Below, piece by piece: positions 1,916 through 50,017 of a stretch of DNA of 64,000 nucleotides (within the stretch, counting starts at the first letter, position 1; each line of letters opens with the position of its first letter). This stretch comes from Bacteroidota bacterium (lineage in GTDB: Bacteria > Bacteroidota > Ignavibacteria > UBA10030). A program made the translations under genes and the position numbers. The notes under the pieces were generated by a model. The model was not told the origin of the DNA, did not search any database, and was given only the letters and a program-made list of their open reading frames with translations. Where the stretch lies: positions 100,905 through 164,904 of the forward strand of contig DATMBF010000005.1 of the NCBI GenBank assembly GCA_035559595.1, in the 5' to 3' direction.

Positions 1916-2719
1916 TTATTCCAGAATAGTTATCTCGTCGCCAATATTGATCCTCCCCATGTTTTCGTGAATCAGATTCTGTCCGAACATCACCTTGCCA
2001 CCGCGATTGCGAAATGTGGCAAGAGTCCTGAGCGGTTCCTCGCTCCTGTTTCCGGTTTCCTGGTCAACCGTCGTAATGCTGCATCGGTCACACAGTTTCG
2101 CCGATCGAAAGCGAACCGCCCCGATCTCGATCGTCTTCCACTCGTCCTCGGCATAGGGTTGAACGCCTTTGACCACAATATTGGGCCGAAAGCGGTTTAT
2201 TGACAGAGGATTGGAGAGACGATTATTGAGGTCGTTAAGAGATTCCTGTGAGATCAGAAGAAAAGGAAAGCCATCGGCAAAGCTGACGACTTCTCCAGAA
2301 TGCTGGAATTCGGGGGGAACAGGACGGCGAGATTCATCCGGCATGTAAACGAGACGACACCGGATCCCCAGGAATTCGTTGAGCAATCGGTCCGCCTCGC
2401 AACTCACCAACGTCGCAGGCACGGTGTTGTGCCAAATCGTGGCGGGAAAAAGGGATTGAGTTTTGGGAGAAAGAGGAACGGATATCGAAAAGGCATTATT
2501 GACTGAGAGGACCAACGATCCGCATTCTATCGCTGTGTGAATCAGTGCCATGCGGGGATGGATGCGTTGAGTGAGAAAAACGTTGTCCTCGTCAACGATC
2601 ATGAACCGGCGATCGTGTTGAAATCCGCGTTCGACGACGTTGCCAGCCAGAATGGAGATCCCCCTGCACGATTTGACGGGATAGATGTAGAGCTGTGCCA
2701 CGGTCATGAGATCGGTCAC
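1916..2719 (-). CDS. MOSC domain-containing protein (YcbX-like; MOSC beta-barrel plus MOSC domain)
   Basis: The 267-aa protein starts 'LYIYPVKSCRG' (MOSC N-terminal beta barrel) and has a conserved Cys near the C-terminus (CDRCSITTVD). Confidence 0.7.
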   Translation of the reverse strand: MTDLMTVAQLYIYPVKSCRGISILAGNVVERGFQHDRRFMIVDEDNVFLTQRIHPRMALIHTAIECGSLVLSVNNAFSISVPLSPKTQSLFPATIWHNTVPATLVSCEADRLLNEFLGIRCRLVYMPDESRRPVPPEFQHSGEVVSFADGFPFLLISQESLNDLNNRLSNPLSINRFRPNIVVKGVQPYAEDEWKTIEIGAVRFRSAKLCDRCSITTVDQETGNRSEEPLRTLATFRNRGGKVMFGQNLIHENMGRINIGDEITILE

Positions 2720-3195
2720 CAGCCCATTTTCTTCCGGAGTTCCGTGATTTGTCCCACGTGATTCTCACCGTGTTTGGAGTACGTGACGAGAAGACTCTGC
2801 AGGGTAATCGGTCCACTTTCGGGGTGAACTCCCCTGCGGTCCCAATCTGCTTCCGACCGTGACCTCAGGAGCGCCGTCATTCTTGCATGCAGGCCCTTGA
2901 GAATCAGGATTGAGCTCTGAATCGGGTGCGATTTCCCGTCCGGCAGATCTGCCCATTTCTCTTGATCGTAAGGTTTGATAGTGGGGTTCTCCTCGGTGAG
3001 GAGCAACTTCATTCTCGTCCAGGCATTCAAATGAGAATCGGCAAGGTGATGGACGACCTGTCGTACCGTCCAGCCGCCATCTCTGTAGGGTGTGTCGAGT
3101 TGACTGTCGGCAAGACCACGAACTGCCTCTTCGACTTGATCGGGAAGTCGTTCGATTTTTACTATCATAGCATCTCGTTCCGCTTTTGTCAGCAT
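2716..3195 (-). CDS. DinB_2/YfiT family metal-dependent hydrolase; bacillithiol S-transferase BstA-like
   Basis: Strong similarity to B. subtilis YfiT across the core: 'LDTPYRDGGWTVRQVVHHLADSHLN', 'PYDQEKWADL' and a C-terminal 'HVGQITELRKKMGW' (the H..H..H metal triad). Confidence 0.8.
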   Translation of the reverse strand: MLTKAERDAMIVKIERLPDQVEEAVRGLADSQLDTPYRDGGWTVRQVVHHLADSHLNAWTRMKLLLTEENPTIKPYDQEKWADLPDGKSHPIQSSILILKGLHARMTALLRSRSEADWDRRGVHPESGPITLQSLLVTYSKHGENHVGQITELRKKMGW

Positions 3196-10764: not shown

Positions 10765-13029
10765 CTACTCCTTTCTGAGAGCTTTCAGCAAGTCTCGGCG
10801 CATTTGGTTTGCCGATTCGTTCTGAGCGTCAAAGATGAGTCCTTCATTTACCGCGGCCAGCGCTTTTTCGTATTGCCGTGTCAGGATGTAAGCACGTGCG
10901 AGATAGAAATGGCCGAGTGCCATTCCGAAATCCAAGTCGACGGCTTTTTCGTACAACGGAATTGCCCTCTGCGGTTGATTAGCCTGAAGGTAGACATTTG
11001 CCAGATTGAAATAGGCGAGAGGCTCAAAAGGATTCTGCTCAATCGCCTGCTCGTATGTCACGATAGCGCGGCTCATGTTGCCTTGAGCCGCGTATGCAAT
11101 GCCGAGATTGACCAGTGCTAACGATTGAGCCGGATTGAGATCCAAACTCATTCGGTAATGTCTTATTGCCTCGCCGTAATCTCCAGCAGCCGCATACGCA
11201 TGTGCGAGGTTGAGATGGAGGTCGGCGTCATTGGGCGACACTTCAAGTGATTTCAGATAGAACTCTATTGCGCCGTGGGGATTCTCGCTCTCTCGCTCCC
11301 GATCGCCAAGAAATCCCAGCACCAAACTTATCCGACGGCGTAATGCATCTCTGTCTTGAGCATTGGCTTCCCCAAGGATTGAATTGATTCTTTCTTTGCG
11401 CTCCGCGAGCAGAAGGGCGCTCAGTGCAATTGCACGAACATCAATGTCCGAATGCCGGGCCAATTTCGAGAGCGAATCCAAAACAAAGGCAGACACTTCC
11501 TTGCGATCGGTACTAAGGTAGTTTTCAAGGAAGAAGGAAACTCCGGCAAACTGAGCCATCGGATGACGTGCAGAGGGGAGGAGAACCCTTCGTGCTGCAT
11601 CTTCGAGAGTTTTGCTCTGGTGAGCGGAAAGCAATCCGCGGACGATTTCTGGATGGGGCTTGATTTCACCGTACCATCTGCGCATAATGCCCTCGAGCGA
11701 ATCGGGCTTCATCGAGGAATGACATCGGCTGCAGGCGCTCTCTATCCCAAGCTGTTCGTCGAACACTGGCCGGGGAATCGATATTGTGTGGTCCGAGCGC
11801 GCAAAGCGAATAGATTTGCCCACCTCGGGATGCTGCAGGTAGGGCATATGGCATGCCACACATCGGCTTCCGTCGGACCCCTCCTTGTGAAATGTGTGTC
11901 GCTGGGGTGCTTCAGCCTTGCTGGAGTGGCAGCCTGTACATTGGCGATCGTCAAACCGGTCGGGCAACGGATTTCGATTGATGTCGCGATAGCCCTGACT
12001 GTGCGGGTCGTGACAACTCACACACGTCATGGATCCGTTCAAATAACAGTCGCTAAAAAAATGGCCCTCCTGATAAGCGAACGTTTTGGTCCGTCCGTCG
12101 GGGTGAAGGTGAGACTCACCCAGCAGTGGCAGTTTGAGGGAGTAATACCTCTCGAGCTTTGATCCGGGGAGATATCCTTGCTGAAGAACATCTTTTACCG
12201 CATGACATTGAAAGCAAACAAGAAGTGATTCATCTTTTGACAGTGTGGAGAGGGAACGCAATCCAATATCGTCTGTCATTCTACCGCTGCGGGCAAGCTG
12301 GACGTGTCGCTTTGCCGGGCCATGACACGACTCACAATCTATCGTGAGAGAGGTGACGTGAGTCTCGTATTTCTTTCGGTTCTGATCGAATCGAAGAGAG
12401 ATCTGACTTCCGTGACATTCCTGGCAATGAGAAAACCGACGGTCAGTGCCAAGCACCCGCGTTGGCGGCCAATCGCTGCATTCGGCAAGCCTGAGTTCGT
12501 CGTTGATGGGGACCCACCCTTTGTTCCCTTTTCCGATCGTATTGGCGAACCACATTCGTCCTTGTTTGCTGTAATCGAAGGGAAGAAACCGCAACGTCCC
12601 GTCAGGGAATTGTGTTACGAAACCCTGTGTACCGCCTCCAACCATATGACCGCGTCCGATAACTCCATCGACTCGAAAAACCCTCTCTCTGGCATTCGAT
12701 GGACGGACTGTAAAAACATATTCTCCGTTTTGAGCGACGGATGGAATGACAACTGCATCCTTGAAGCGGATCGGTGTTCCGTCAAATGGTGCTATAAGAG
12801 TTTCGGGGATTGGCAGTCCGCCGGCATTGCCGTGTGTTGAGTGAACCCAGGCATCGTATTGCTCTGCGTGACAATTCTTACAGGTTTCAGCTCCCGCAAA
12901 GTCCGAGAACGAGATCGACTTCGTGGCTGTGAATGACGTTTGAGAGGTACTATCAAAGCGGGATGATTCGAAGGCGAGAAAGAGTCCCAGCCAGCAGGGG
13001 AGCAAGGCGAGGAAGAGTTGCGGCCTCAT
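10765..13029 (-). CDS. Octaheme c-type cytochrome with C-terminal TPR repeat domain
   Basis: Eight CXXCH motifs (CKNCH, CQECH, CESCH, CFQCH, CVSCH, CTGCH, CVACH, CSRCH). The first is followed by 'AEQYDAWVHSTHG' (CXXCH-x6-W-x2-S-x-H, as in the NapC/NrfH/c554-type family). The C-terminal 250 aa or so are TPR repeats (e.g. 'YFNLANVYLQANQPQRAIPLYEKAVDLD'). The start was chosen at M15 (signal-like MRPQLFLALLPCWLGLFLAF), giving an ATGA overlap with the upstream gene. Confidence 0.8.
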   Translation of the reverse strand: MRPQLFLALLPCWLGLFLAFESSRFDSTSQTSFTATKSISFSDFAGAETCKNCHAEQYDAWVHSTHGNAGGLPIPETLIAPFDGTPIRFKDAVVIPSVAQNGEYVFTVRPSNARERVFRVDGVIGRGHMVGGGTQGFVTQFPDGTLRFLPFDYSKQGRMWFANTIGKGNKGWVPINDELRLAECSDWPPTRVLGTDRRFSHCQECHGSQISLRFDQNRKKYETHVTSLTIDCESCHGPAKRHVQLARSGRMTDDIGLRSLSTLSKDESLLVCFQCHAVKDVLQQGYLPGSKLERYYSLKLPLLGESHLHPDGRTKTFAYQEGHFFSDCYLNGSMTCVSCHDPHSQGYRDINRNPLPDRFDDRQCTGCHSSKAEAPQRHTFHKEGSDGSRCVACHMPYLQHPEVGKSIRFARSDHTISIPRPVFDEQLGIESACSRCHSSMKPDSLEGIMRRWYGEIKPHPEIVRGLLSAHQSKTLEDAARRVLLPSARHPMAQFAGVSFFLENYLSTDRKEVSAFVLDSLSKLARHSDIDVRAIALSALLLAERKERINSILGEANAQDRDALRRRISLVLGFLGDRERESENPHGAIEFYLKSLEVSPNDADLHLNLAHAYAAAGDYGEAIRHYRMSLDLNPAQSLALVNLGIAYAAQGNMSRAIVTYEQAIEQNPFEPLAYFNLANVYLQANQPQRAIPLYEKAVDLDFGMALGHFYLARAYILTRQYEKALAAVNEGLIFDAQNESANQMRRDLLKALRKE

Positions 13030-14699
13030 CGGTTTCCTTCTTGCGACCAGGCAGGACCCTCGCAGGTACACAGCGTGCGAATGAATCGAACGAGACTCCA
13101 GATCTGCTCGCGGGTAAGTGTCTTTCCAAAGGCGGGCATAAAATGACTTTTGCCAAGAACTCTACCGCCACCATAAATTCCATCAAAAAGCGTGTCGTCG
13201 CTTCGCACCGACATGACAGAAGGATCCGAGTGTTTTGCGGGTTGCACAGGGAGGTAGCGGGCGTTAAATCCGTCTCCGTTGCCTCGCAGACCATGACACG
13301 GTGAGCAATAATGCGTGTAAAGGCGCCCGGCTTCGGTTGTGTCAGGTCGGCCGGGATTTCCATGATCGATGATGTTGAGTTGTGGAAGATGTTGAGGTTT
13401 CTTGTCGCGCGTTGATAAAAACGTAGCGAGCAATTCGACATCCGACTTCGGCAATGGGAGGGCAGGCATGGCACTCTCATGAACCGTGCCCTGAGGATCC
13501 TTGATTATTCGGTAAACAAAGGTCGGTTGAAGTCTCGGCTTGAGCGAAGAAAGGTCCGGGCCAACCATTCCTCCCTTACCATCGAAGCGGTGGCAGCCGA
13601 AGCAGGGAAGTTGCGTGCGTAAGATGTTCTCTGCTTTGCGTTGAGAGAATGGCGAAAGACGAGTGGGGGTAAACGTCGCGTCGACATCGCTCTTGAGCGA
13701 AGCGAGGTGTGATGTGAGCGTTTCCAGTTCATCGGTTGTGAGGTCATAAGAGGGCATTCTGCTGCCGGTTCCCGGATGAAAACCGAAAGGCCGGATCGTG
13801 TGCGGTTGTGCGAGGTATGACCGAAGCCATGTCTGATGGACACGAGAGCCTTCTGTGCTTAAATCCGGCGCGTTGTGCCGTTGATTCACTCCACGCATTG
13901 CATGACACCCGCCGCAATTCTGAAACTCGAAAATCCTTGCTCCGTCTTCAGCGGTAACGGTCGGGTTCGCACTCCGAACTCTCTGGTATGCGACCTCCAT
14001 TGTTTCACGTTCCTTTGCCCCAAAGCTCATCAGATAGCTAACCATAACCTGAATCTTGCTTCCTGCATCCTGAATCACCTCTTTCAACTCGTTCTTTTCC
14101 TGATCCTTGCTATAAACTTGCGCCGGCATTGGTGATCCGGGATCAAATGCCTGAGGCAACGCGAGGTATTGGACAAGCCAGTTTGCTTTCGCTCTCAAAC
14201 CAACGCTGACCAAATCCAGAGCAATTGGTCCGCCCTGACCTTCGAGCTTGTGACAGAATGTGCATTTCAACTCATCGACGATCATCTTGCGGGCCTCGGC
14301 AGTACGAGGAGACTTGCGGTCCCACGACTGAACAATCGTGGGGAACGCCGGCAGGGGTTGGTCGGTTTTCAACCGTTCCTTCAAATACAACACTAACGCC
14401 AGCCTCTCCCGCTCGGTTAACCGGAAGTTGGGCATTTGTGTCTTACCGATGTGCAAGCGCACTCGTTTGGGATTCCCAAGATAGTCAAAGAGATACGCTT
14501 CTGGATAACGCAGCCCGGCGTAGCTCAACGATGGAGCTTTGGTTTCAATCTCAGCAGCAGGTTCAACCCCCGGATGACAGGCGCCACAGGCAAGCTCAGT
14601 CACAAGTTGGCGTGCAGATTGGGATTGGGCAGAAGGTGTCAATACGAACACAGCAATGAAGGCAATGGCGAAGTGAACAGACTTCACGAGGGGGACCAC
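13026..14699 (-). CDS. Pentaheme protein made of five class-I cytochrome c domains
   Basis: Five CXXCH motifs (CGACH, CTFCH, CGGCH, CFGCH, CSPCH). Each is followed by a 'GG/GP' turn and a distal Met-Pro (MPNF, MPAQ, MPSY, MPAL, MPAF), the usual Met sixth-ligand arrangement. There is an N-terminal signal peptide. Confidence 0.8.
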   Translation of the reverse strand: MVPLVKSVHFAIAFIAVFVLTPSAQSQSARQLVTELACGACHPGVEPAAEIETKAPSLSYAGLRYPEAYLFDYLGNPKRVRLHIGKTQMPNFRLTERERLALVLYLKERLKTDQPLPAFPTIVQSWDRKSPRTAEARKMIVDELKCTFCHKLEGQGGPIALDLVSVGLRAKANWLVQYLALPQAFDPGSPMPAQVYSKDQEKNELKEVIQDAGSKIQVMVSYLMSFGAKERETMEVAYQRVRSANPTVTAEDGARIFEFQNCGGCHAMRGVNQRHNAPDLSTEGSRVHQTWLRSYLAQPHTIRPFGFHPGTGSRMPSYDLTTDELETLTSHLASLKSDVDATFTPTRLSPFSQRKAENILRTQLPCFGCHRFDGKGGMVGPDLSSLKPRLQPTFVYRIIKDPQGTVHESAMPALPLPKSDVELLATFLSTRDKKPQHLPQLNIIDHGNPGRPDTTEAGRLYTHYCSPCHGLRGNGDGFNARYLPVQPAKHSDPSVMSVRSDDTLFDGIYGGGRVLGKSHFMPAFGKTLTREQIWSLVRFIRTLCTCEGPAWSQEGNR

Positions 14700-20966: not shown

Positions 20967-21527
20967 ATGGCCGTCGAATCGATAGAGATCCCATTAAAAA
21001 CCAAGATGCCGTCGTTCGAGCTACCTGACCCGGATGGAACAATGTATCGTGGAAAAGATCTGTACGGTCCAAAAGGATTGCTGGTCATCTTCTCGTGCAA
21101 CCATTGTCCGTACGCGCGAGCCGTTTGGCCTCGGACAATCAAGCTTGCGTCCTACGCCAAAGGGCTTGGCATCAACACCGTGGCGATCAACCCGAACATT
21201 CATCCGGACTATCCGGAGGACAGGCCGGAAGTAATGAAACAGAAGATTAAGGAATGGGGGATTCCGTTTCCGTATCTCGTAGATGAGTCACAGCAGATTG
21301 CTGCCGCTTTCAAAGCCCAGTGCACGCCAGATATCTACCTGTTCAATAGCAATCAAGAGCTTGTCTATCACGGCAGGGTGGATGATAACTGGCAGGATGA
21401 GGCGAAGGTTACCCGCGAGGAGCTGAAGGATGCAATCACGAGTCTCGCACAGGGGAAACCGATACCGGAACAGCAATATCCCTCTCTTGGCTGTTCAATT
21501 AAATGGAGAGAGAATCCGTATACCTAA
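20967..21527 (+). CDS. Thioredoxin-fold protein (redoxin/AhpC-TSA-like) with CXXC
   Basis: 'LLVIFSCNHCPYA' is a CXXC active site set in a thioredoxin-fold context, and it sits in a 'VAINPN' TlpA/redoxin-like layout. Confidence 0.6.
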   Translation: MAVESIEIPLKTKMPSFELPDPDGTMYRGKDLYGPKGLLVIFSCNHCPYARAVWPRTIKLASYAKGLGINTVAINPNIHPDYPEDRPEVMKQKIKEWGIPFPYLVDESQQIAAAFKAQCTPDIYLFNSNQELVYHGRVDDNWQDEAKVTREELKDAITSLAQGKPIPEQQYPSLGCSIKWRENPYT

Positions 21528-21570: not shown

Positions 21571-23247
21571 TTAACGAAGCCTCTCGAGTGCCCTCAGTTT
21601 TTCTTCAGCTCGCCGCTTATATTCGAGCGTGGCTGTGTGTTGCGGATCGATCAGAAGGACTTTGTTCCACTCATCGAGTGCCGCTTTATACTCTTCTTTG
21701 ATGTAGAGCTGAACTCCAGCTCTGAAGATTTTGTCGATCTCAGTTTTTAGTGCTTCTCGCGCACGCTCGAGGTACGTCCTGGCATCACGATGTTTCTCGT
21801 CCCGCTGTAACACTTCGACCATTGTGTTTACAGCAACCCAATAATTCGATTCATCGAAGGCGGCTTTTCCACGCTCAAAGATTTCTTGCACTCTCTTCCC
21901 CCGCACGCTTTCGAGACCCTTTCGCGCGTCGGCATTGCGAGGCTCCATGGCGAGCACTCGCTCGAACTCTCTTTGTGCTTCGTCCAGCTGGTTGCGGCTC
22001 AACAGCGTGCGTGCGCGATTCAAGATCGTCTGGACGTTCTCCTTCATCATTCCCTCTAATTCGGTAAGCTTTACCATGATGCTATCATTCAGAGGGTCGA
22101 GTTCAAGCACCTGCTCATACGAACGCCGCGCACGCTCGAAATCTCGCCGCGCTCGAAGACTGTCACCAACCGAGAGCAGCCTTCGCACATTCGATTCGAG
22201 AATTGGTCTAACTGCCTCCAGCCGCTTTTCAACCTCGGAGTGATTCGGTTGCATTTTCAGAATTGTCTGATATCGTTTGATTGCCTCAACATAGTTCTTT
22301 CGTTCTTCAAGTTTCGATGCTTCGTCAAACAGGGCAGAAACGTTACTATCGAGCTCCGCTTGCGTTTGTTCAATCATTGCATGCGCATTGTGAAAATATT
22401 CATCGTACTCGAGAGCCAGAATGAATTGGTCACGGGCGTCCGACAGCCGTTTTTCTTCATATGCTTCCATCGCTGCTTCAAAATGCTTTGAACGTAAGTC
22501 TTTTGCAGCTTCGCTGAATCTGAAACTTACCGAGAAGACAATGCCGGCTTTGCCGGCCGCGAGCTCAAGTTTCGCAAAGTTGGATTGAAGACTGACCCCA
22601 CCGCGGATTTCCTTAAATGCACGAGATCCAACTTGGAGGCCCAACCAATCTGCAGCCAAGAGTTCGGAACCGACAACGAGTTCACCCCGCTCTGCTTTTT
22701 GCCATCCCGCCTGAACTCTCCAAGTGTCACGCAGGAGCCAAAACCCGACACCTGCTTGCAAACCCATCGGCGAACCGAAAGGCTGCTTCGGCAGATCGTT
22801 GACACTCACGCCGAAATGAAAGCCGGAATTCGCAGAAACGGAGTCCGGAAAATGGAGTGCAGATCCGACCGAGAAAGAAAACGTTTCCTTCGCATTTCGA
22901 AAAAGGTTCAGCACCGCTCCGATCGTGTGTACGTCGCCGATAAGTCCGCCATAGCCGACGGTGTATTGTGTTGCTTGACCGAGTTGCGCAATTCCGGCCC
23001 CAAACGTACCTACAAAGGGGAAAAAATGCGCAGCACTCATAGAAGAGAAATTTGAAAAGCGATTTGTACTGAGGAGAAACTCCGATTGATGGAGGCGAGC
23101 CATCTCAGCCGGATTAGAAAACAAGGCTGACGGACGGGGGAGCCACATACTTGAACTTCCGCCAAGTGCATAATCGTTACCCCCTGTTGTTTGTGCAGCG
23201 AGAGGAGAAATAATGAAAACAAGAAGAAGGTGGGGGAGGTATTTCAT
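21571..23247 (-). CDS. Secreted protein with an N-terminal beta-rich (possibly PorP/SprF-like barrel) domain and C-terminal TPR repeats
   Basis: A signal peptide and 250 aa or so of alternating-hydrophobic beta-like sequence containing an 'FSNPAEMARL' (NPA) motif. The rest is TPR-like repeats (e.g. 'YEQVLELDPLNDSIMVKL'). The gene overlaps the upstream cyclase gene by 4 nt. Confidence 0.55.
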   Translation of the reverse strand: MKYLPHLLLVFIISPLAAQTTGGNDYALGGSSSMWLPRPSALFSNPAEMARLHQSEFLLSTNRFSNFSSMSAAHFFPFVGTFGAGIAQLGQATQYTVGYGGLIGDVHTIGAVLNLFRNAKETFSFSVGSALHFPDSVSANSGFHFGVSVNDLPKQPFGSPMGLQAGVGFWLLRDTWRVQAGWQKAERGELVVGSELLAADWLGLQVGSRAFKEIRGGVSLQSNFAKLELAAGKAGIVFSVSFRFSEAAKDLRSKHFEAAMEAYEEKRLSDARDQFILALEYDEYFHNAHAMIEQTQAELDSNVSALFDEASKLEERKNYVEAIKRYQTILKMQPNHSEVEKRLEAVRPILESNVRRLLSVGDSLRARRDFERARRSYEQVLELDPLNDSIMVKLTELEGMMKENVQTILNRARTLLSRNQLDEAQREFERVLAMEPRNADARKGLESVRGKRVQEIFERGKAAFDESNYWVAVNTMVEVLQRDEKHRDARTYLERAREALKTEIDKIFRAGVQLYIKEEYKAALDEWNKVLLIDPQHTATLEYKRRAEEKLRALERLR

Positions 23248-24869
23248 TCTACTGGTGCGTAATCAATGCGGTGGACGGGGACTCGCTCCTGTTTTCCTTT
23301 GATAGCGACCTTCCCTTCCGATCGTGTCTTGTAATTGCCGTTGAGTCTCGCAACGACGGTATCGCCAACGAGAATCTGGTCAGCCTCTGCGATGGCGCAC
23401 AATCGAGCAGCGAGATTGACCGTATCACCGATGGCGGTGTAGTCCATTCTGTCTTGTGACCCGATGCTTCCCATCACGGCTACTCCTGTCGCAATACCGA
23501 TGCCAACCTTGAGTGTTATGTCGCCGCTGGCCCCCCGTTCCTTGTTGAGTTTTGCCACCGCACATTGGATGTCCACTGCCGCCTTAACGGCCTGCTGCAC
23601 CATCTTCTCGCCTGTGAAGATGCTCATAATCCCGTCGCCCAAGAATTTATCAACTACTCCGCCGTTCTGATGAATGATGGTTGTTTGCAGGTCGAGGTAG
23701 TGGTTCAACACGACGACAACCTCTTCAGGCCACTTACTTTCGGAAACAGAAGTGAAGTTTCGGATGTCTGTGAACATGGCGGTAATGACTCGCCGGCTTC
23801 CGCCCAATGTCACCTCTTTTCCCTGGGCGATCATTTGAGCTGTCGCTCTGGAAACAAACTTCTGCATCTCCGTCTTTTCCCGAATCTGCAAGACCATCAT
23901 GTTGAATTCATGGGCGAGGCTGCCTAACTCGTCTTTGACACGAGTGGCTACCGAGACTTTGAGGTCTCCCATCCCCACACGTCTTGCAGCATCGGCAAGA
24001 ACGATAATGATATGGACGGCCTTCTTCGAGAAGATCGCCACGAGAGCAATTACAATTATAGAGACAATCGAGGCCGTGAGAATGATAGTGTTTTTGAGCT
24101 CTTCGATTGGAGCAAGCAGGATGGCTTTCGAAAAGCCAACGGAAGCGGCCCCAATAAGGATCTGCTTGGTTTCATTTCCCTCTCTCTTTGACACAGTAAC
24201 CGCCTTGATAAATCTGAACGACTCGGGAGACTCGATCGCCCGTGCAGAATCAGTCCTTGCAAGGAGGTCCCACTCCGCCAACGAAATCAGCTTGTTCATG
24301 CTGTCAGGTACCACATGTGCAACAATCGTTCCCGTCCGATCGACGACGAACAAATGATCGAGCCCCGGAATGTTCTGCTTGGTGATATTCTTCACGTAGT
24401 CCTGCAAGACGATGTAAGAGCCCAGGAGAAGATTATCCTCGGCGACAGCGGCAAGACTCTGCACGATGTTCGTGCCCAACACTTGTGTTTGTACGCGAAG
24501 CTCCCGCTCCTGGATCTGCAGCGCAATGGTGCTAATGATGATCGTAACCACAATTACTGAACCGCCGACGATGAGGCTCAGCTTAATCCGAATCTTTAAT
24601 CGGAGGAAGGTCTCAACAGCATAACCCCACGCGGCCTGGAGGTTCTCTTTGATCGTGCGAGCAATGCGCCGAATAGCAGGTCTGGCTTTCGTTGTCTGTT
24701 GTTGAACGGAGTCCTGAAGAAGGAGCGTGAGTCGCGTGATTTCTTTCCCGAAACGTTTGGCGAGTGGTATGGTGTGATGAAACGCCTCTTCAACGTACTG
24801 TCGCGCGGCCGCGATCAGTTTCGACGCTGATGCGAGGATCCGTTTCGGGTCAAAGGAAGGAGTGGACAT
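23244..24869 (-). CDS. Membrane-anchored class III adenylate/guanylate cyclase with HAMP domain
   Basis: TM segments, a HAMP-like linker, then CYCc motifs 'VTAMFTDIRNFTSVSE', 'VDKFLGDGIMSIF' and 'GIATGVAVMGSIGS...DYTAIGDTVNLAARL'. Confidence 0.8.
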   Translation of the reverse strand: MSTPSFDPKRILASASKLIAAARQYVEEAFHHTIPLAKRFGKEITRLTLLLQDSVQQQTTKARPAIRRIARTIKENLQAAWGYAVETFLRLKIRIKLSLIVGGSVIVVTIIISTIALQIQERELRVQTQVLGTNIVQSLAAVAEDNLLLGSYIVLQDYVKNITKQNIPGLDHLFVVDRTGTIVAHVVPDSMNKLISLAEWDLLARTDSARAIESPESFRFIKAVTVSKREGNETKQILIGAASVGFSKAILLAPIEELKNTIILTASIVSIIVIALVAIFSKKAVHIIIVLADAARRVGMGDLKVSVATRVKDELGSLAHEFNMMVLQIREKTEMQKFVSRATAQMIAQGKEVTLGGSRRVITAMFTDIRNFTSVSESKWPEEVVVVLNHYLDLQTTIIHQNGGVVDKFLGDGIMSIFTGEKMVQQAVKAAVDIQCAVAKLNKERGASGDITLKVGIGIATGVAVMGSIGSQDRMDYTAIGDTVNLAARLCAIAEADQILVGDTVVARLNGNYKTRSEGKVAIKGKQERVPVHRIDYAPVE

Positions 24870-24955
24870 CGGTCTCCCTGCAATCCATCAAAGAAGCTTT
24901 TGAAGGCCACACACTCTACGAGATAAAAGTGAAAAAAGCAATGCAAGCCGAAAGC

Positions 24956-25480
24956 CTAGATTCCCTGCATGCGCTTCAAGAGTTGGATTTGTCCTGCATG
25001 GTAAATGTCGTGTGCGGCAATCCCATAGATCAGTCTTGCAACCGTATGTTTGCTGCCGGGTGACTTTCGGTAAAGATCGCGCGGCTTTAACGCTGTGATT
25101 GCACGTCGAAGGCTGCGATGCATGTTGTCCACTAAGTGCAGATGTTCAGCCCACAGCCGTTCGGCGGATTTATCGATGGTCCGCGGACTGTAGCTGACAG
25201 GGAACCAGTTGCTTCCTTTCACTGGAAACGAGCCACGGTTCTCGTTCGTCAGTCTTCTTCTCACCGCATACTTCCAATAGGCTGTGTGAATCGCTATCTC
25301 CCAGATGCTGTGACGTTTTGGCGATGGTCTCCAGCTCGCTTGCCGAGCGGTTAATCCTCTGAGGGAGCCCTTCAGGTTTGGTCCGTGCCAGGCCTGTTTC
25401 TCATACGCCTCCTCAATCAATCGCAGAAGCAGGTGAAGCTCGTTCCGATTCTTCATCACAGAATCGCTCATCCTTTCCAT
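24956..25480 (-). CDS. DinB/YfiT-like superfamily protein (DUF664/DinB_2-type four-helix bundle)
   Basis: 'WHGPNL...IWEIAIHTAYWKY' and a C-terminal 'AAHDIYHAGQIQLL' give the His triad of DinB-like metalloenzymes. It overlaps the 3' end of bshB1 by 13 bp and is likely co-transcribed with it. Confidence 0.55.
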   Translation of the reverse strand: MERMSDSVMKNRNELHLLLRLIEEAYEKQAWHGPNLKGSLRGLTARQASWRPSPKRHSIWEIAIHTAYWKYAVRRRLTNENRGSFPVKGSNWFPVSYSPRTIDKSAERLWAEHLHLVDNMHRSLRRAITALKPRDLYRKSPGSKHTVARLIYGIAAHDIYHAGQIQLLKRMQGI

Positions 25481-26196
25481 TGGACGAGGTGGAAGAGATC
25501 ACTCACGCCAAGTGGGAAGAGTGAGTAGAACGGTTCGCCATACTGAACTCCAATCCTCCGTCCGTAGTACCGTGCCCGGTTCTCTACTGAGTCAAGAAAA
25601 TCGGGACGGCTCAAAACGGTTTCGGGATCTTTGCTCTCTGGATCGTGAAATTGAGAGCGATGTGCCCGTATGGCATTCATCTTTACATCCATCACATCGC
25701 TAATGTCCACAATGAATGTTGGAGTCACTTGATGCCATTGCATATATTCATAGTACCGGTCGGGACGGTAGGCGTGTTGAGTCTGACCGTTGAGTGTTGT
25801 TCGAATCTTTTGAAGTCCGGCGTAGAACCACGACTCTTTGCACAGGAGATGTGCTCGTCCGTGGTCTGGATGCCGGTCGACTGAATAAGGGATCAGCATC
25901 ACCTTCGGCTGAAGCTCCCGGATGAGCTGGATCAATTTCAAACGATTGTCTTGATTGACCTCAATGTTGCCATCAGGGATCTTCAAATTCCTTCGAGTGA
26001 CGGCTCCGAGAATCTTTGCCGCTTCCTCTGCCTCTTTCTGTCGCATCTCCTTTGTCCCACGTGTTCCAAGTTCTCCCTCAGTGATATCGATGAGTGCAAT
26101 CGAACGACCGAGCTTCTTGAGTTTTGCGAGAGTTCCGCCACAGGAGAGTTCGATATCATCCGGATGTGCACCAAGTGCGAGAATATCAACGGACAT
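25468..26196 (-). CDS. bshB1: PIG-L/LmbE family N-acetylglucosaminyl-malate deacetylase (bacillithiol biosynthesis BshB1-like)
   Basis: 'ILALGAHPDDIELSCGGTLAKL' is the PIG-L motif, and 'HPDH' lies downstream. The start was chosen at MSVDILAL, which has a GGAG RBS. Confidence 0.7.
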   Translation of the reverse strand: MSVDILALGAHPDDIELSCGGTLAKLKKLGRSIALIDITEGELGTRGTKEMRQKEAEEAAKILGAVTRRNLKIPDGNIEVNQDNRLKLIQLIRELQPKVMLIPYSVDRHPDHGRAHLLCKESWFYAGLQKIRTTLNGQTQHAYRPDRYYEYMQWHQVTPTFIVDISDVMDVKMNAIRAHRSQFHDPESKDPETVLSRPDFLDSVENRARYYGRRIGVQYGEPFYSLFPLGVSDLFHLVQWKG

Positions 26197-26459
26197 AGTT
26201 GGGACTCCAGGTTGATCGGCTGGCAATATAGCGAGCACAAACCTGAAAGACAAGAAACTGATCATGGTAATCCCGCAAATCTTGAATGACGTGATGGACC
26301 GCGTTTCGATGTTGTTTGGAGATCGACTCCCTAAGGGCTAAATATCGTGAAGTTCTGTGTCGGAAGTAACGGAACAGAAGGAATTCTGCTTGAATATCGT
26401 CCACCAACTGGCTACCTTGAGGAACACGTCAACGCAAATAGTCAAAGAAAGTTTCGACG

Positions 26460-27656
26460 ATGGACCAACGAGGGAGGAAGATTCTCAGCGTCAGTGAGTT
26501 GACCCAGCTCATCAAGTATTCACTGGAGAATGCTTTTCCGCATGTGTGGTTGCAAGGGGAGATCTCCAACGCCAAGCTTCACACATCGGGCCATTTCTAT
26601 TTTACCCTGAAAGACGAGAAGTCTCAAATATCTGCCGTCATGTGGCGATCCAACCTCACCACCCTTCCTTTTGTGCCGGAGGATGGAATGAAAGTGTTGG
26701 CACTTGGGTCGATCACGGTGTATCCTCCCCGTGGAAACTATCAGATAGATGTCGTTGAGCTTCAGCCCGTTGGCATCGGTGAACTTCAACTCGCTTTTGA
26801 TCGCCTCAAAAGGAAACTCGCTGCTGAAGGATTGTTCGACGCGGCCCACAAGAAGCCTCTGCCGGAGTTCCCGGAGCGGATTGGCATCATTACATCGCTC
26901 ACCGGCGCGGCATTGCAAGATATTCGTACCGTTCTTCAAAAGCGATTTCCGGCTGTTGAGGTCGTTGTGTCCCCGGTTCGAGTGCAAGGTTTCGGCGCGG
27001 CTGAGGAGATCGCCCAAGCCATTGAGGAGATGAATCGATTTGGAGAGGTCGATGTGCTGATTGTTGGACGCGGCGGCGGGTCGCTCGAAGATCTCTGGGC
27101 ATTCAACGAAGAACGCGTCGCGCGGGCAATCTATGCCTCGAGGATTCCCGTGGTGAGCGCAGTAGGGCATGAAATTGATTTCAGCATCTCCGACTTTGTG
27201 GCGGATTTGAGGGCCCCAACCCCCTCGGCAGCAGCAGCGATGGTCGTGCGAGACCGCAGAGAACTCCTTGAAGTTCTCTCGAACATTTCCTATACTATGC
27301 GGCAAGCCATTGCAGATCGGATTCAACACCTGCGCGATCGGATTCGCCACGCCGTGGGGAGCTATTCCTTCAATCGACCCAGAGACCTTGCAAGAGAATA
27401 CGCTCAGCGACTCGATGAGCTGGGGCGCGGCTTAGTGAGCGCAATGAATCACCGCTATGCAATGAAGAAACACGAGAGCGCCGCACTCCATCATAGACTT
27501 GAAGGATTGAGCCCGCTCCGCGTACTGCATCGGGGTTATGCCATCGTGAGGAAGAACGGAGCAGTCGTGGCACGGGCAAGCGATCTCAAACAAGGGGATC
27601 AAACCAAATTGCAGTTTTACGATGGAACCGTAGGGGCACGCATAGACGAAGAATGA
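26460..27656 (+). CDS. xseA: Exodeoxyribonuclease VII large subunit
   Basis: N-terminal OB-fold 'LSVSELTQLIKYSLENAFPHVWLQGEISNAKLHTSGHFYFTLKDE' and the catalytic region 'VGHEIDFSISDFVADLRAPTPSAAAA'. Confidence 0.85.
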   Translation: MDQRGRKILSVSELTQLIKYSLENAFPHVWLQGEISNAKLHTSGHFYFTLKDEKSQISAVMWRSNLTTLPFVPEDGMKVLALGSITVYPPRGNYQIDVVELQPVGIGELQLAFDRLKRKLAAEGLFDAAHKKPLPEFPERIGIITSLTGAALQDIRTVLQKRFPAVEVVVSPVRVQGFGAAEEIAQAIEEMNRFGEVDVLIVGRGGGSLEDLWAFNEERVARAIYASRIPVVSAVGHEIDFSISDFVADLRAPTPSAAAAMVVRDRRELLEVLSNISYTMRQAIADRIQHLRDRIRHAVGSYSFNRPRDLAREYAQRLDELGRGLVSAMNHRYAMKKHESAALHHRLEGLSPLRVLHRGYAIVRKNGAVVARASDLKQGDQTKLQFYDGTVGARIDEE

Positions 27657-30889: not shown

Positions 30890-31693
30890 ATGTCCCTCAT
30901 CGCGTTGTTGACCGACTTTGGATTGAGCGATCATTATGTTGGAACGATGAAGGGTGTCATTGTTTCGGCAAATCCCGGCGCGCGAATTATCGACCTCTCG
31001 CACGATGTCCGCCCGCAACAAGTCCATGAGGCCGGCTATCTCCTCTGGGCAGCTTACACATATTTCCCCAAAGGCACGATTTTCGTTTGTGTTGTTGACC
31101 CGGGTGTCGGCTCAACGAGGAGGATCCTCGCCGTGGAGACCGAACATTATCGATTCCTAACTCCCGACAACGGATTGCTTGACTATGTCCTGGCGGAAGA
31201 GCGAATCATTGCCGCCCGCGAAGTTGTCGTTACAGCCAATGGTGTGAAGGGGCTCCCAAGGGTTCGCATCGAACGAATCTCGTCAACATTCCATGGGCGT
31301 GATATCTTCGCGCCAGTTGCCGCAGCACTCTCTCGTGGAGATCAATGGACAGGCGAAGCCCCACTCCTCTCGTTAAAGACGCCGGATTCAGTTTTTGTCG
31401 ATTCACATCGAGGGAAGGTCCAACCCCGCATACTCCATATCGATAGATTCGGGAATCTCATAACCAACATTCGATCTTCGAATTTCTACGAGGCAAAAAC
31501 CCTCGCACCCGCACTCCGCGTGGGGAAAAAGAGAGTTCGTCGTTGGATCTCCAATTATTCAGAGGGCTCTCTCCGGGAACCGTCGCTAATCCTCGGAAGC
31601 AGCAGTCTCATTGAGGTTGTGTTAAGGGAAGGAAGCGCCGCCCGCCACCTCAGAGCGTCGTTAGCCACAAAGCTTGCCATTGTTCGTTCATGA
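30890..31693 (+). CDS. SAM hydroxide adenosyltransferase family protein (DUF62; fluorinase/chlorinase-like fold)
   Basis: 'IALLTDFGLSDHYVGTMKGVI' and 'FVCVVDPGVGS' match the DUF62 N-terminal domain. The gene overlaps ribD by 4 nt. Confidence 0.7.
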   Translation: MSLIALLTDFGLSDHYVGTMKGVIVSANPGARIIDLSHDVRPQQVHEAGYLLWAAYTYFPKGTIFVCVVDPGVGSTRRILAVETEHYRFLTPDNGLLDYVLAEERIIAAREVVVTANGVKGLPRVRIERISSTFHGRDIFAPVAAALSRGDQWTGEAPLLSLKTPDSVFVDSHRGKVQPRILHIDRFGNLITNIRSSNFYEAKTLAPALRVGKKRVRRWISNYSEGSLREPSLILGSSSLIEVVLREGSAARHLRASLATKLAIVRS

Positions 31694-41595: not shown

Positions 41596-42030
41596 CTAAG
41601 GCTGCTTGCTTGAACTGACGAGAACGATGTTTCCCCAGTAGTCTGGATGAATGTAGTGGGTGATCAGACTGTTGAATTCAGGAACTCGGGAGGAAGGGAG
41701 GATAATGTAGAGAACTGCTTGAGAGCGATTGGATGAGTGAAATTGGTCGAGGAAGACGTTGTATTGTGTGAGCGCGTGCTCTGTTTCTAAGTCTGCCACC
41801 CCGGTTTTTGCCTCCCCTATAACGTATCGCTTGCGAACAGGGTCAAAAGCATAGATGTCCGGTGCTTTATCCTCCTGATCCCCGTAGCCATCATTGTGCA
41901 ACGGTTCGGGTTGCGGTAGACCCTCCAATCCCTCAACGGCCAGGATCTTGAAATTCTCTTGCTTGAAAATTTCAAGAAGCTCGATAACCAACGCATGATG
42001 TTTTTCCAGATCCTCCTGAGGACGCGCCAT
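41596..42030 (-). CDS. Hypothetical 144-aa protein translationally coupled to bshA
   Basis: Its start lies 3 nt after the bshA stop. 'DIYAFDP...YVIGEAKT' resembles a D...(E/D)xK nuclease-like core, but family assignment is uncertain. Its stop abuts the uvrD stop on the opposite strand. Confidence 0.4.
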   Translation of the reverse strand: MARPQEDLEKHHALVIELLEIFKQENFKILAVEGLEGLPQPEPLHNDGYGDQEDKAPDIYAFDPVRKRYVIGEAKTGVADLETEHALTQYNVFLDQFHSSNRSQAVLYIILPSSRVPEFNSLITHYIHPDYWGNIVLVSSSKQP

Positions 42031-42033
42031 TGC

Positions 42034-43170
42034 TTATTTCACAGCTACTTCCGATCCGTAGAGAATTCTCTCGTAGTGCCGCTCATACATCTTCACGATT
42101 TTCGAAGACTCGAATTGCATTGCCCGTGACCGGGCGGCTTTGGCAAACATCTGTTGCTTTGATGGGTTCGCAAGGAGATCGATTGCGTACCGTGCCATCC
42201 GATCGATGTCCCCGATCTCGGCAATATAACCGCACTCGCCATGAACAACGAGCTCGGGCAAACCGCCGACGCTTGAAGAGACAACCGGCACTTCGCATGC
42301 CATCGCTTCTAACGCAGAGAGGCCAAAACTCTCGGATTGGCTTGGCAGCAGGAAGAGATCGGCTGCCGAGAGGAGATCCACAATTTCCGTTTGCTTTCCG
42401 AGGAACTTCACAAGATGCTGAATACCGAGCTCGCGGCAGAGATGTTCACAGGCCGATCGGTCGGGACCATCACCGATCAGGAGCAGTTTCGACTTGATCT
42501 GTTTTTGGACAATGTCAAAAATTCTGATCACATCCTGCACACGTTTGACGGGACGGAAGTTTGACGTGTGGACGAGGATCTTCTCACTATTTGGCGCACA
42601 AATCTTTCGGACTTCCTCGGAAGGAATTCTACGGTATTTTGTCGTATCGATGAAGTTCGGAATCACTTCGATCTCTTTTTCGATCCCGTAGTTTGTTAAG
42701 GTTTTCTCCTTCAGGAATCGTGAAACGGCGGTAACGCCATCACTCTGTTCTATACTGAATTTCATCACCGGGAGAAAACTCGGCTCCAGTCCGACCAGGG
42801 TGATGTCTGTCCCATGAAGAGTCGTAATAACTTTCGCATTCGTCGGCGAGAGCATCTGCTTTGCGAGGTAAGCGCTTGTTGCGTGAGGGATGGCATAATG
42901 GCAATGAAAGAGATCGATCTTTTCGTAACGTGCAACTTCAACCATCTTGCTGGCAAGGGCGAGCGTGTAAAGAGGGAACTCAAAGAGCGGATAGCTTGTC
43001 ATTTCGACTTCATGGTAGGTAATATTCCCCTTGAAGCCAGTGAGCCGGATAGGCATGGCGTAGGTAATGAAATGGATGGAATGGCCGCGCTCTGCGAGAG
43101 CTTTACCTAGCTCGGTGGCCACCACGCCGCTCCCTCCGTACGTGGGATAACATGTAATCCCGATGTTCAT
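42034..43170 (-). CDS. bshA: N-acetyl-alpha-D-glucosaminyl L-malate synthase (bacillithiol biosynthesis glycosyltransferase, GT4)
   Basis: The N-terminus 'MNIGITCYPTYGGSGVVATELGKALAERGHSIHFIT' and 'HCHYAIPHATSAYLAKQML...TTLHGTDITLVG' closely parallel B. subtilis BshA ([39 protein letters not shown]...). Confidence 0.85.
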   Translation of the reverse strand: MNIGITCYPTYGGSGVVATELGKALAERGHSIHFITYAMPIRLTGFKGNITYHEVEMTSYPLFEFPLYTLALASKMVEVARYEKIDLFHCHYAIPHATSAYLAKQMLSPTNAKVITTLHGTDITLVGLEPSFLPVMKFSIEQSDGVTAVSRFLKEKTLTNYGIEKEIEVIPNFIDTTKYRRIPSEEVRKICAPNSEKILVHTSNFRPVKRVQDVIRIFDIVQKQIKSKLLLIGDGPDRSACEHLCRELGIQHLVKFLGKQTEIVDLLSAADLFLLPSQSESFGLSALEAMACEVPVVSSSVGGLPELVVHGECGYIAEIGDIDRMARYAIDLLANPSKQQMFAKAARSRAMQFESSKIVKMYERHYERILYGSEVAVK

Positions 43171-43467
43171 TGTGCAGAATTCCTCACGAGTATGTTAAAG
43201 AGAATTGGGTGGAGATACAAGCAAACGGCCGAAACTCTAACGCTAAAAAGAACTTACACTGAAAAGAAGTGTGCGCTATCTCGTTTGACGATATGATAAC
43301 ATGGATTGAACGACGTTCAGTTCAGAAAAGAAGTGGGAATTATTCCTATTTTTCCCGCTTGATTTAAGGAGTAAGAAAAGTTATATTGAGAGTGTCTGAA
43401 ATGATCATCAAGCGCCTAATTGCTTGATTTTTTAATACGCATATATTGGACTGAAGAAGTCGGATTT

Positions 43468-43872
43468 ATGTTGCAGCTTTCGAAACGTGTCGAATACGGT
43501 CTGATAGCACTTCGCCATATGGCGATGCATCCAATGGGAAAGGTCTTCACGGCCAAGGAACTGGCTCGGGAGTATGATATTCCCTATGAGCTCCTTGCCA
43601 AGGTGCTTCAGAAGTTATCACGTGCGCGTGTGGTCAATTCTCTGCACGGCGTGAAAGGCGGATACGCGCTCGCCCGAAATCCGTCAGACCTTACCATATC
43701 GCAGATCATTCGAATCATCGATGAAGAGAAACCGATGGTTGCGGAATGTTATGTTGACGGTCCGGATAGCTGTTATCTATTCGGCAATTGTACGATACGG
43801 CGCCCTCTTGGAAAGTTGCAGCGCAGCTTGAATGTGGTTTTTGATAGAATGACAGTTCAGGAAATCATTTGA
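43468..43872 (+). CDS. Rrf2 family transcriptional regulator (IscR/SufR-like, Fe-S sensing)
   Basis: 'MLQLSKRVEYGLIALRHMA' is the Rrf2 wHTH N-terminus. Three clustered Cys (CYVDGPDSCYLFGNC) form an IscR-type cluster ligand set. It sits directly upstream of the suf operon. The ORF track start at 43420 is a TTG start. Confidence 0.75.
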   Translation: MLQLSKRVEYGLIALRHMAMHPMGKVFTAKELAREYDIPYELLAKVLQKLSRARVVNSLHGVKGGYALARNPSDLTISQIIRIIDEEKPMVAECYVDGPDSCYLFGNCTIRRPLGKLQRSLNVVFDRMTVQEII

Positions 43873-43890
43873 CCATTTGATGGAATCTCT

Positions 43891-44268
43891 ATGAGCGACC
43901 TCTTGAAACTTTTTACCGACAAGCGAAAGGAATTTCTCAACTTCCTTAAGTCGCGATATCACCTCTATCACCTCTCTAATGTATTCTTCCGTGACATGCA
44001 TTATGGCGTCATGGCCTTTCTGGCGATGAACGGCACGAAAGTGAAATACACTCAGGCAGAGGAACTGACAAAAAAGGTGATCGAATCTCTTGAGCAGGCG
44101 AACATTTTAGTGAAGGCCGATCGGCTGGCATGGGTGTTAACCTATCCTGACTTTAAGAAGCCACCCGTGAAACCTGCTGCTCCGGCAAAACCCTCAACGC
44201 CGGCGAAGCCGGCAGCTGCTCCGGCGAAACCACAGCCTACATCGGAAGCAACGCCTGCTTCTGCATAG
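43891..44268 (+). CDS. Hypothetical protein between the regulator and sufB, with a Pro/Ala/Lys-rich (PAKP-repeat) C-terminal tail
   Basis: A 125-aa ORF in the same orientation, tightly packed between the Rrf2 gene and sufB. The tail reads 'KKPPVKPAAPAKPSTPAKPAAAPAKPQPT'. No family recognised. Confidence 0.45.
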   Translation: MSDLLKLFTDKRKEFLNFLKSRYHLYHLSNVFFRDMHYGVMAFLAMNGTKVKYTQAEELTKKVIESLEQANILVKADRLAWVLTYPDFKKPPVKPAAPAKPSTPAKPAAAPAKPQPTSEATPASA

Positions 44269-44298
44269 CGACATGAAGTCTTTACACAGGGTAAGATC

Positions 44299-45756
44299 AT
44301 GAGCACTGAGACCAACACTGTTGAACAATTAGCAATTCAAGAGTACAAGTACGGATTCGAAACCGCGGTCGAGTATGATGTCGTTCCGAAGGGGCTGAAT
44401 GAAGACATCATCAAGCTCATATGGGAGAAGAAGGGCGAACCCGACTGGATGCTCGAGTGGCGGCTGAAGGCCTTCCGTCATTGGGAGAAACTCTACAAGG
44501 ACGGAAAGGAACCCAAGTGGGCCAACATCAAATATGGCCCGATCGACTACCAGAGTATTCGCTACTACTCAGCACCGAAGAAGAGACCGAAACTCAATAG
44601 TCTCGATGAGGTAGACCCCGAGATCCGCAAGACGTTCGAGAAGCTTGGGATTCCGCTCGAGGAGCAAAAGCTCCTTGCCGGAGTTGCCGTCGACGCTGTC
44701 TTTGACAGTGTCTCCGTTGCAACTACGTTCAAGGCAAAACTGGAGGAGCTTGGTATCATTTTCTGTTCGATGACCGAAGCAATTCGCAATCATCCCGATC
44801 TCGTCAAGAAGTACCTTGGCTCGGTTGTTCCGTACTCCGACAACTTCTTCGCAGCCTTGAATTCCGCAGTCTTTAGTGACGGCTCGTTTGCATACATCCC
44901 CAAAGGTGTGCACTGCCCGATGGAGCTCTCAACGTACTTTCGCATCAACGCACGAGAGACAGGCCAGTTCGAGCGAACGCTCATTGTCGCCGACGAAGGC
45001 GCTTCCGTGAGCTACCTTGAAGGATGCACCGCTCCAATGCGTGATGAGAATCAGCTCCATGCAGCGGTTGTTGAGCTCGTTGCCCTCGATAATGCCACCA
45101 TTAAGTATTCAACGATCCAGAACTGGTATCCGGGGGACAAAGAGGGTCGTGGGGGGATCTATAACTTCGTGACCAAGCGAGGAAAAGCGCTCGGCAGGAA
45201 TTCGAAGATCACCTGGACACAGGTGGAGACCGGCGCCGCCATTACGTGGAAATACCCAAGCTGTTTGCTGATCGGCGAGAATTCCGTCGGCGAGTTTTAT
45301 TCCGTTGCGGTAACAAACAACTACCAGCAGGCAGATACAGGGACAAAGATGATTCACATCGGGAAGAACACACGGAGCACTATCGTTTCAAAAGGGATTT
45401 CTGCTGGATTCGGTCAAAACTCGTATCGCGGCCTTGTTCGTATTCAGAAAAGTGCGACTGGAGCGAGGAATTTCTCTCAGTGTGATTCATTGCTGATCGG
45501 AGATAAATGCGGTGCTCACACCTTCCCCTACATGGAGGTGCAGAACACCACTTCGAGCATTGAGCACGAGGCAACGACATCAAAGATCGGCGAGGATCAG
45601 ATTTTCTACTGCAAACAGCGCGGACTCTCAACAGAAGATGCAGTGAACATGATTGTCAACGGCTTCTGCAAAGAGGTCTTTCGCGAACTGCCGATGGAGT
45701 TTGCTGTCGAAGCGCAAAAACTTCTCAGTATTAGTCTGGAAGGCAGTGTCGGGTAA
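44299..45756 (+). CDS. sufB: Fe-S cluster assembly protein SufB
   Basis: A 485-aa protein. '[33 protein letters not shown]' is the SufB core, and the C-terminal 'IVNGF' region is present. Confidence 0.9.
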
Positions 45757-45789
45757 ACACTCAGGAACACATTCAACAAAGGAAAAGCA

Positions 45790-46548: not shown

Positions 46549-46562
46549 GGAGTGGACTGAGA

Positions 46563-49609: not shown

Positions 49610-49615
49610 GTAAAT

Positions 49616-49999: not shown

Positions 50000-50017
50000 G
50001 GAAGAGAGGAGTTTCCG

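Follow-up and report, generated by a model that had tools for sequence, protein, structure and literature searches.

A DinB_2-family gene beside bshB1 in an Ignavibacteria contig: a widespread, uncharacterised protein in a lineage-specific position

This analysis concerns a stretch of 64,000 nucleotides (nt) from a Bacteroidota bacterium of the Ignavibacteria (contig DATMBF010000005.1), in the following called the window, and in particular two adjacent genes on its minus strand, namely bshB1 of bacillithiol synthesis and a downstream gene of the DinB superfamily, here termed DinB2. The map of open reading frames (ORFs) revealed two successive ORFs on this strand, 25468-26265 followed by 24956-25480, within which we recognised the following features:

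25468..26196, minus strand: bshB1, encoding the GlcNAc-malate deacetylase of bacillithiol synthesis (242 amino acids, aa; matched by TIGR04001 and Pfam PIG-L)
25457..25467, minus strand: spacer of 11 nt, running from the bshB1 stop codon to where DinB2 probably starts (from the sequence and the alignment with two relatives, L081 and L082)
24956..25456, minus strand: DinB_2-family gene DinB2, probably 166 aa with an ATG at 25456 (the longest ORF, up to 25480, would give 174 aa)

The product of the first gene reached 288.9 bits against the BshB1 model TIGR04001 (cutoff 182.5), far above the rival models for BshB2 (51.4 bits), Mca (36.5 bits), and MshB (36 bits), and matched Pfam PIG-L with E = 3.9e-26. 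Its translation contains the zinc-site motifs AHPDD and H-x-D-H (as GAHPDDIE and RHPDHGRAH), while a distant kinship to the Mca amidase was also detected (TIGR03446, E = 3.8e-9). The PIG-L gene, described as BshB1-like in an earlier note on this DNA, can thus be called BshB1 proper. A longer bshB1 ORF up to 26265 found no support, since the model match already starts at the third residue of the 242-aa protein, and 242 aa are likewise encoded by the gene of the metagenomic relative L081.

At the junction of both genes, which reads CAATGGAAAGGATGAGCGATTCTGTGATGAAG, three in-frame ATG codons come into question as the start of DinB2, namely at 25480 (13-bp overlap with bshB1), at 25471 (ATGA, 4-bp overlap), and at 25456 (11-nt gap). 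A gene caller had chosen the position at 25471 for P0001, a DinB2 homologue of 99% identity. Since a 1-nt deletion in L081 throws the positions at 25480 and 25471 out of frame, a GTG lies in that relative exactly at the 25456 position (10 nt past the bshB1 stop codon), and nearly all DinB2 homologues start 3–6 residues ahead of a conserved E-x-x-LLL motif, the gene likely starts at 25456, with an 11-nt spacer and no overlap. The 13-bp overlap given in the earlier note therefore applies to the longest ORF only, and translational coupling via this overlap was dropped in favour of the start at 25456. No terminator-like site was found on the minus strand between bshB1 and DinB2, and a separate DinB2 promoter is unlikely because the spacing from bshB1 is too short; this tight spacing is conserved in L081. 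As the earlier note had proposed, bshB1 and DinB2 are very likely co-transcribed, judging from the short spacing and the lack of an intervening terminator-like site. The transcript may exceed two genes, since two further genes follow closely:

23244..24869, minus strand: Cache/HAMP adenylate-guanylate cyclase gene, 86 nt 3' of DinB2 (Pfam Guanylate_cyc and HAMP; the sCache_3_2 match lies slightly under the cutoff, with 27.7 vs 28.4 bits)
21571..23247, minus strand: TPR-repeat protein gene, overlapping the cyclase gene by 4 nt (Pfam TPR families)

Rfam and tRNA scans revealed only three tRNAs, none of them close to the bshB1-DinB2 locus.

The DinB2 protein belongs to the superfamily proposed for it, scoring 55.4–55.7 bits against Pfam DinB_2 (cutoff 24.8). 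AlphaFold2, supplied with the family alignment, gave a confident helical bundle (predicted local distance difference test, pLDDT, 88.8; predicted template modelling score, pTM, 0.84), for which the top PDB matches in Foldseek were the Mycobacterium tuberculosis mycothiol S-transferase and Bacillus subtilis YfiT, with template modelling (TM) scores of about 0.55. Based on these models, the predicted DinB four-helix-bundle fold can be regarded as certain, in agreement with the earlier note, and no single characterised neighbour stands out. An alignment with 20 homologues revealed 40 invariant columns, including H65, H121, H157, and H161 and the motifs WHGPNL, AYWKY..RRR, KRGSFPxKGSNW, and HDxYHAGQIQLLKR. 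Among these, H65, H157, and H161 form a histidine triad of the type His-x(91)-His-x3-His, which is predicted to be a metal site. A hidden Markov model (HMM) of the DinB2 family, run across the ORFs of the window, found one other match only (E = 0.006), namely the YfiT-type protein described below. In an hhalign comparison of the family with this single YfiT, the C-terminal HDIYHAGQI of DinB2 pairs with HGENHVGQI; the overall probability was just 3.7%, and the alignment was used solely for the HxxxH motif.

Homologues of DinB2 are numerous, with at least 7,969 clusters (90% identity) at E ≤ 1e-3 out of 8,000 scored candidates and a typical length of about 160 aa, and a scan with one genome per GTDB species revealed at least 590 loci of the family. 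All species-level counts given here refer to the best 80 of these at least 590 loci, whose proteins are 51–63% identical to the window protein. They belong to Bacteroidota (27), Acidobacteriota (26), Ignavibacteriota (14), Planctomycetota (5, one of them on a 4.4-Mb contig), Methylomirabilota (3), and Gemmatimonadota (1), in addition to one metagenome-assembled genome (MAG) labelled Clostridia and three unclassified bacteria, as tallied from the record titles, and the loci span 39–73% in guanine-cytosine (GC) content. Several proteins of the window have nearest relatives labelled Ignavibacteria, Ignavibacteriales, or Bacteroidota. A DinB2-like protein is already annotated as "DinB family protein" in public databases, and with so large a family spread over many phyla, including Planctomycetota and Methylomirabilota, the idea of a protein new in this lineage did not hold. 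DinB2 represents a large, strongly conserved, uncharacterised subfamily, whose genes usually stand alone, in genomic surroundings that vary.

This became apparent from the neighbourhoods of both genes. On the DinB2 side, a bshB1 homologue within 6 kb of the DinB2 orthologue was found in none of the 80 species loci, YfiT in one, and weak GT4-type BshA matches (28–32% identity) in three. The neighbours were heterogeneous, with TonB-like (14), EamA (11), FAD oxidoreductase (9), and MOSC (6) genes among others; no conserved partner gene emerged from the 80 neighbourhoods, and no thiol genes showed up among these neighbours. For the bshB1 side, 80 metagenomic bshB1 relatives with 30–60% identity and up to 5 kb of flank were examined, 59 of which had a readable complete ORF downstream of bshB1. 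A DinB2- or YfiT-like ORF was detected near bshB1 in none of these 80 (tblastn; HMM and phmmer searches with filters off), while bshA lies directly downstream of bshB1 in 31. The closest relatives (L083, L085, L087, and L129; 52–60% identity) have kept a divergent xseA gene and lack DinB2. The bshB1-DinB2 pair appeared only in L081 and L082. Of these, L082 is 99–100% identical to the window and thus represents the same species, and L081 is 73–81% identical (BshB1 81%, DinB2 about 75%). Since the cyclase gene following DinB2 is kept in both relatives and the TPR gene (72% identity) in L081, the longer contig, the shared pair reflects general local synteny; and since only L081 and L082 share it, the juxtaposition is best seen as a recent rearrangement in one shallow lineage. 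Roughly estimated, some DinB-fold paralogue would come to lie next to one of three bsh genes by chance in on the order of 1% of genomes, so that such an adjacency is unsurprising across thousands of lineages. The adjacency to bshB1 is weak evidence for DinB2 being a bacillithiol enzyme, because the pairing is confined to the closest relatives, and the description of DinB2 as a strong candidate for a bacillithiol transferase, which had rested on the linkage, could not be maintained.

The rearrangement that set DinB2 beside bshB1 is marked by the slot in which a homologue of another ORF of the window is found. This ORF (459-854, minus strand) is small, cysteine-rich, and membrane-anchored, has no Pfam match, and lies 24.6 kb from bshB1. 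Its homologue is located directly 3' of bshB1 in L083 (5939-6400, 31% identity), and an ORF in the same slot after bshB1 in L084 (4096-4506) is apparently similar to it by its N-terminus. Upstream of bshB1, two further features were noted:

26225..26253, minus strand: single sigma-70-like promoter match 5' of bshB1 (9 of 12 consensus positions; weak evidence)
26460..27656, plus strand: xseA-like gene, divergent from bshB1 (ORF, named by eye only)

The one sigma-70-like site compares with 1.2 expected by chance and is not significant alone, and across 24700-26500, promoter- and terminator-like sites were no more numerous than in shuffled sequence. The divergent layout of xseA and bshB1 is retained in L081, L083, L085, L087, and L129, and xseA represents the more ancient gene next to bshB1 and the conserved one.

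Two other genes of bacillithiol metabolism named in the earlier note were verified in the window:

2716..3195, minus strand: YfiT/BstA-type bacillithiol transferase gene (NF009807; Pfam DinB_2, MDMPI_N, MST, and DinB all match)
42034..43170, minus strand: bshA (TIGR03999, 559 bits, cutoff 273.7)

The first of these reached 196.9 bits against NF009807, "YfiT family bacillithiol transferase" (cutoff 160), and the BshA protein shows 100% identity to one that NCBI already lists under this name ("MAG TPA Bacteroidota bacterium"). Regarding their position, bshA lies 16 kb from bshB1 and adjoins a suf operon, and YfiT lies about 22 kb from bshB1. All three thiol genes in the 64 kb are thus bona fide, and the density that the earlier note had called notable is a mild one, noticed post hoc. 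Among the bshB1 relatives, no other arrangement is as common as bshB1 next to bshA (31 of 80), so that these two genes of the window look like a dispersed pair and not like a cluster, which leaves the location of YfiT as the only extra coincidence.

As for the function of DinB2, our best guess is that of a thiol S-transferase, suggested by analogy within the superfamily and not by linkage. Specifically, we give a probability of roughly 45% to DinB2 acting as a thiol-dependent transferase, here with bacillithiol or N-methyl-bacillithiol. All eight DinB-fold proteins of B. subtilis (BstA-H) were described as bacillithiol transferases with monochlorobimane that are sensitive to ethylenediaminetetraacetic acid (EDTA) and inactive with cysteine or coenzyme A, with H67, H160, and H164 as the only residues conserved across all eight (PMC5815605). 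The residues H65, H157, and H161 of DinB2 match these three in position. Furthermore, other characterised DinB-fold enzymes with a His triad that turned up as structural matches, namely MST, MDMPI, EgtB, OvoA, and SenA, handle thiols or selenols. The organism itself encodes BshA, BshB1, and YfiT. Pathways for bacillithiol or N-methyl-bacillithiol were predicted to be complete in all Chlorobi and Ignavibacteriae and to occur in many Bacteroidetes, Acidobacteria, and Gemmatimonadetes (Hiras et al. 2018, PMC6282198), and 68 of the best 80 species matches of DinB2 (85%) fall into phyla with predicted bacillithiol. A local rearrangement in this lineage has presumably put the block of DinB2, cyclase, and TPR genes 3' of bshB1, with DinB2 now being transcribed from the bshB1 promoter. 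As its most likely biochemistry, the enzyme would use a divalent metal to transfer a low-molecular-weight thiol onto an electrophile, the thiolate of bacillithiol or N-methyl-bacillithiol being activated on the metal bound by the three histidines. The adjacency to bshB1 itself adds little to this superfamily-based prior.

Several results weigh against a bacillithiol transferase, in addition to the missing linkage on both sides and the missing thiol-gene partner. DinB2 matched no NCBIfam model at E ≤ 1e-3, the YfiT equivalog NF009807 included, and stayed below the thresholds of Pfam MST (PF04978, 19.4 vs 27 bits) and Pfam DinB (PF05163, 19.4 vs 23 bits). When the PDB was searched by sequence, neither the protein nor the family profile gave a significant match (best E of 0.78 and 0.083, respectively, both for unrelated proteins), the identity to solved DinB-fold proteins is just 10–21%, and the non-thiol DinB-fold proteins ClbS and DfsB score in the same structural range. 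For bshC, no model match was obtained among the window ORFs scanned with NCBIfam, the remaining long ORFs being judged by eye only (amidohydrolase-, cytochrome-, and transporter-like proteins, a UvrD-like protein, Suf proteins, and Dxs). Eight of the best 80 species matches belong to Planctomycetota (5 loci) and Methylomirabilota (3), and the predictions of PMC6282198 include no low-molecular-weight thiol for Planctomycetes; in the literature, we found no newer bacillithiol survey for these two phyla beyond that of Hiras et al. 2018. Finally, the conservation of 52–63% across phyla is unlike that of the "extremely divergent" Bst enzymes and hints at one specific conserved substrate, with a thiol not necessarily involved.

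It is quite possible that the adjacency to bshB1 is functionally meaningless and the result of a lineage-specific rearrangement, and that DinB2 has a role independent of bacillithiol, be it as a metalloenzyme, e.g., in a hydrolase- or isomerase-type reaction or with another thiol, or as a non-catalytic protein. Such an accident would agree with the pair being conserved at none of the loci on either side, with the whole DinB2-cyclase-TPR block moving together, with the family members in Planctomycetota and Methylomirabilota, with the unusually high cross-phylum conservation, and with the DinB2-family HMM showing no cross-match above threshold with the YfiT and MST models. It fits less well with the His triad, which defines the thiol-transferase members and is invariant in DinB2, with the fact that almost all characterised His-triad DinB-fold enzymes use thiols (Bst, MST, MDMPI, LmbV, and EgtB/OvoA), and with the large share of best matches in phyla with predicted bacillithiol. 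An unlikely alternative would give the adjacency a meaning, with both proteins forming a two-step detoxification module in which DinB2 conjugates bacillithiol and the PIG-L protein, as a Bca-like amidase, frees the cysteine S-conjugate, in parallel to MST and Mca of the mycothiol system. The tight, presumably co-transcribed spacing kept in L081 and the distant kinship of the PIG-L protein to Mca speak for it, and for Bacillus BshB-type deacetylases, both deacetylase and conjugate-amidase activities have been reported. Against this, the PIG-L protein clearly falls with the BshB1 equivalogs and not with the BshB2/Bca type (288.9 vs 51.4 bits), and a pairing limited to one shallow lineage would be unexpected for a selected functional module.

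More improbable still, in our view, is a housekeeping role, in which the WHGPNL/AYWKY subfamily would constitute a bacillithiol- or N-methyl-bacillithiol-dependent enzyme for one conserved endogenous substrate. This subfamily has no characterised or crystallised member and shows more than 50% identity over genomes of 39–73% GC; if it had such a role, its occurrence in Planctomycetota and Methylomirabilota would point to a bacillithiol-like thiol as yet unrecognised in those phyla. That DinB2 is a chance ORF 3' of bshB1, for which nothing speaks except the uncertainty of the start codon, was refuted by the at least 7,969 homologous clusters, the identities of 52–75% across phyla, the 40 invariant columns, and the confident fold.

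Comparison of DinB2 with known systems, starting from a thiol transferase as the preferred reading, revealed both likeness and difference. YfiT/BstA and BstB-H (PDB 1rxq, 5wk0, 2qe9, and 3dka) are, like DinB2, single-domain four-helix bundles of about 160 aa with a His...HxxxH triad (67/160/164 in BstA, 65/157/161 in DinB2), found in a host with bacillithiol biosynthesis genes. DinB2 differs from the Bst enzymes in its low identity to them (10–21%), in lacking a YfiT-equivalog match, in its far greater conservation across phyla, and in the extra invariant motifs WHGPNL, AYWKY..RRR, and KRGSFPxKGSNW. The M. tuberculosis mycothiol S-transferase (PDB 8f5v; MST/DUF664) and Deinococcus radiodurans DR_1065 (2ou6) represent a family for which DinB2 scores below the cutoff, and the window carries bacillithiol genes, not those of mycothiol. 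Another uncharacterised Bacteroidota DinB-like protein, CHU_0679 of Cytophaga hutchinsonii (PDB 2qnl), is 14% identical to DinB2 and allows no functional transfer. In Bacillus, bshB1 is part of an mgsA-bshB1-bshA cluster. The classical bshB1-bshA operon contains the same bshB1 equivalog as the window, but here the slot after bshB1 is occupied by the DinB2, cyclase, and TPR genes, with bshA 16 kb away by the suf operon.

Overall, we regard this as an ordinary finding with a modest biochemical lead. That this group carries bacillithiol genes was published in 2018, and proteins of the DinB fold were recognised as thiol transferases between 2011 and 2018; to these known facts, the window adds one shallow, lineage-specific juxtaposition of bshB1 and DinB2. 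Of use are the corrected DinB2 start codon, an alignment that defines the invariant residues of the family, and the finding that the linkage is not conserved. If DinB2 proved to be a transferase for bacillithiol or N-methyl-bacillithiol, an orphan family that is very large and widespread would gain a function, and bacillithiol-dependent enzymology would extend beyond Firmicutes to Bacteroidota, Ignavibacteriota, and Acidobacteriota.

Further observations were made around the other thiol genes. A gene with MOSC_N and MOSC domains (1916-2719) overlaps the YfiT gene by 4 nt on its downstream side, the whole region 1916-3195 being on the minus strand, and thus forms a second close pair with a DinB-fold gene; MOSC orthologues were also identified 2–3.5 kb 3' of the DinB2 orthologue in six of the 80 species loci (L004, L006, L022, L054, L059, and L063). 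On the minus strand at 41596-42030, 3 nt past the bshA stop codon, an ORF of 144 aa (orf144) without a Pfam or NCBIfam match was found, in which a PD-(D/E)xK-like motif (PDIYAFD...IGEAKT) was recognised by eye. Its homologues (66–80% identity) lie directly 3' of bshA in L163-L166, whose BshA proteins are 82–90% identical to that of the window. Among the sampled relatives, the adjacency of orf144 to a bsh gene is more deeply conserved than that of DinB2, although synteny extends over the entire suf-bshA-orf144-uvrD region. Divergent from bshA, on the plus strand at 43420-50419, an Rrf2-family regulator is followed by a suf operon for Fe-S clusters that comprises sufB, sufC, sufD, and sufS with NifU-like, Fe-S_biosyn, and FeS_assembly_P genes, and this divergent layout of bshA and Rrf2-suf is conserved in L163-L166. 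In Firmicutes, a link between bacillithiol and the biogenesis of Fe-S clusters has been described. Elsewhere in the window, two plus-strand genes (20967-21527 and 59350-59955) add to its redox-related content and seem to encode thioredoxin-fold, ResA/TlpA-like thiol-disulfide oxidoreductases, a generic assignment with scores below the family cutoffs. The minus-strand region 10765-14699 contains two large ORFs for multi-haem c-type cytochromes (768 and 557 aa) with amidohydrolase genes on either side, the 557-aa protein having a SoxX-like haem domain (TIGR04485, 81.9 bits, cutoff 61) that covers just a portion of its much greater length. Finally, the gene at 30890-31693 on the plus strand belongs to the S-adenosylmethionine hydrolase/fluorinase family (DUF62-type) and scored 173.9 bits against the (R)-S-adenosyl-L-methionine hydrolase model (cutoff 350).

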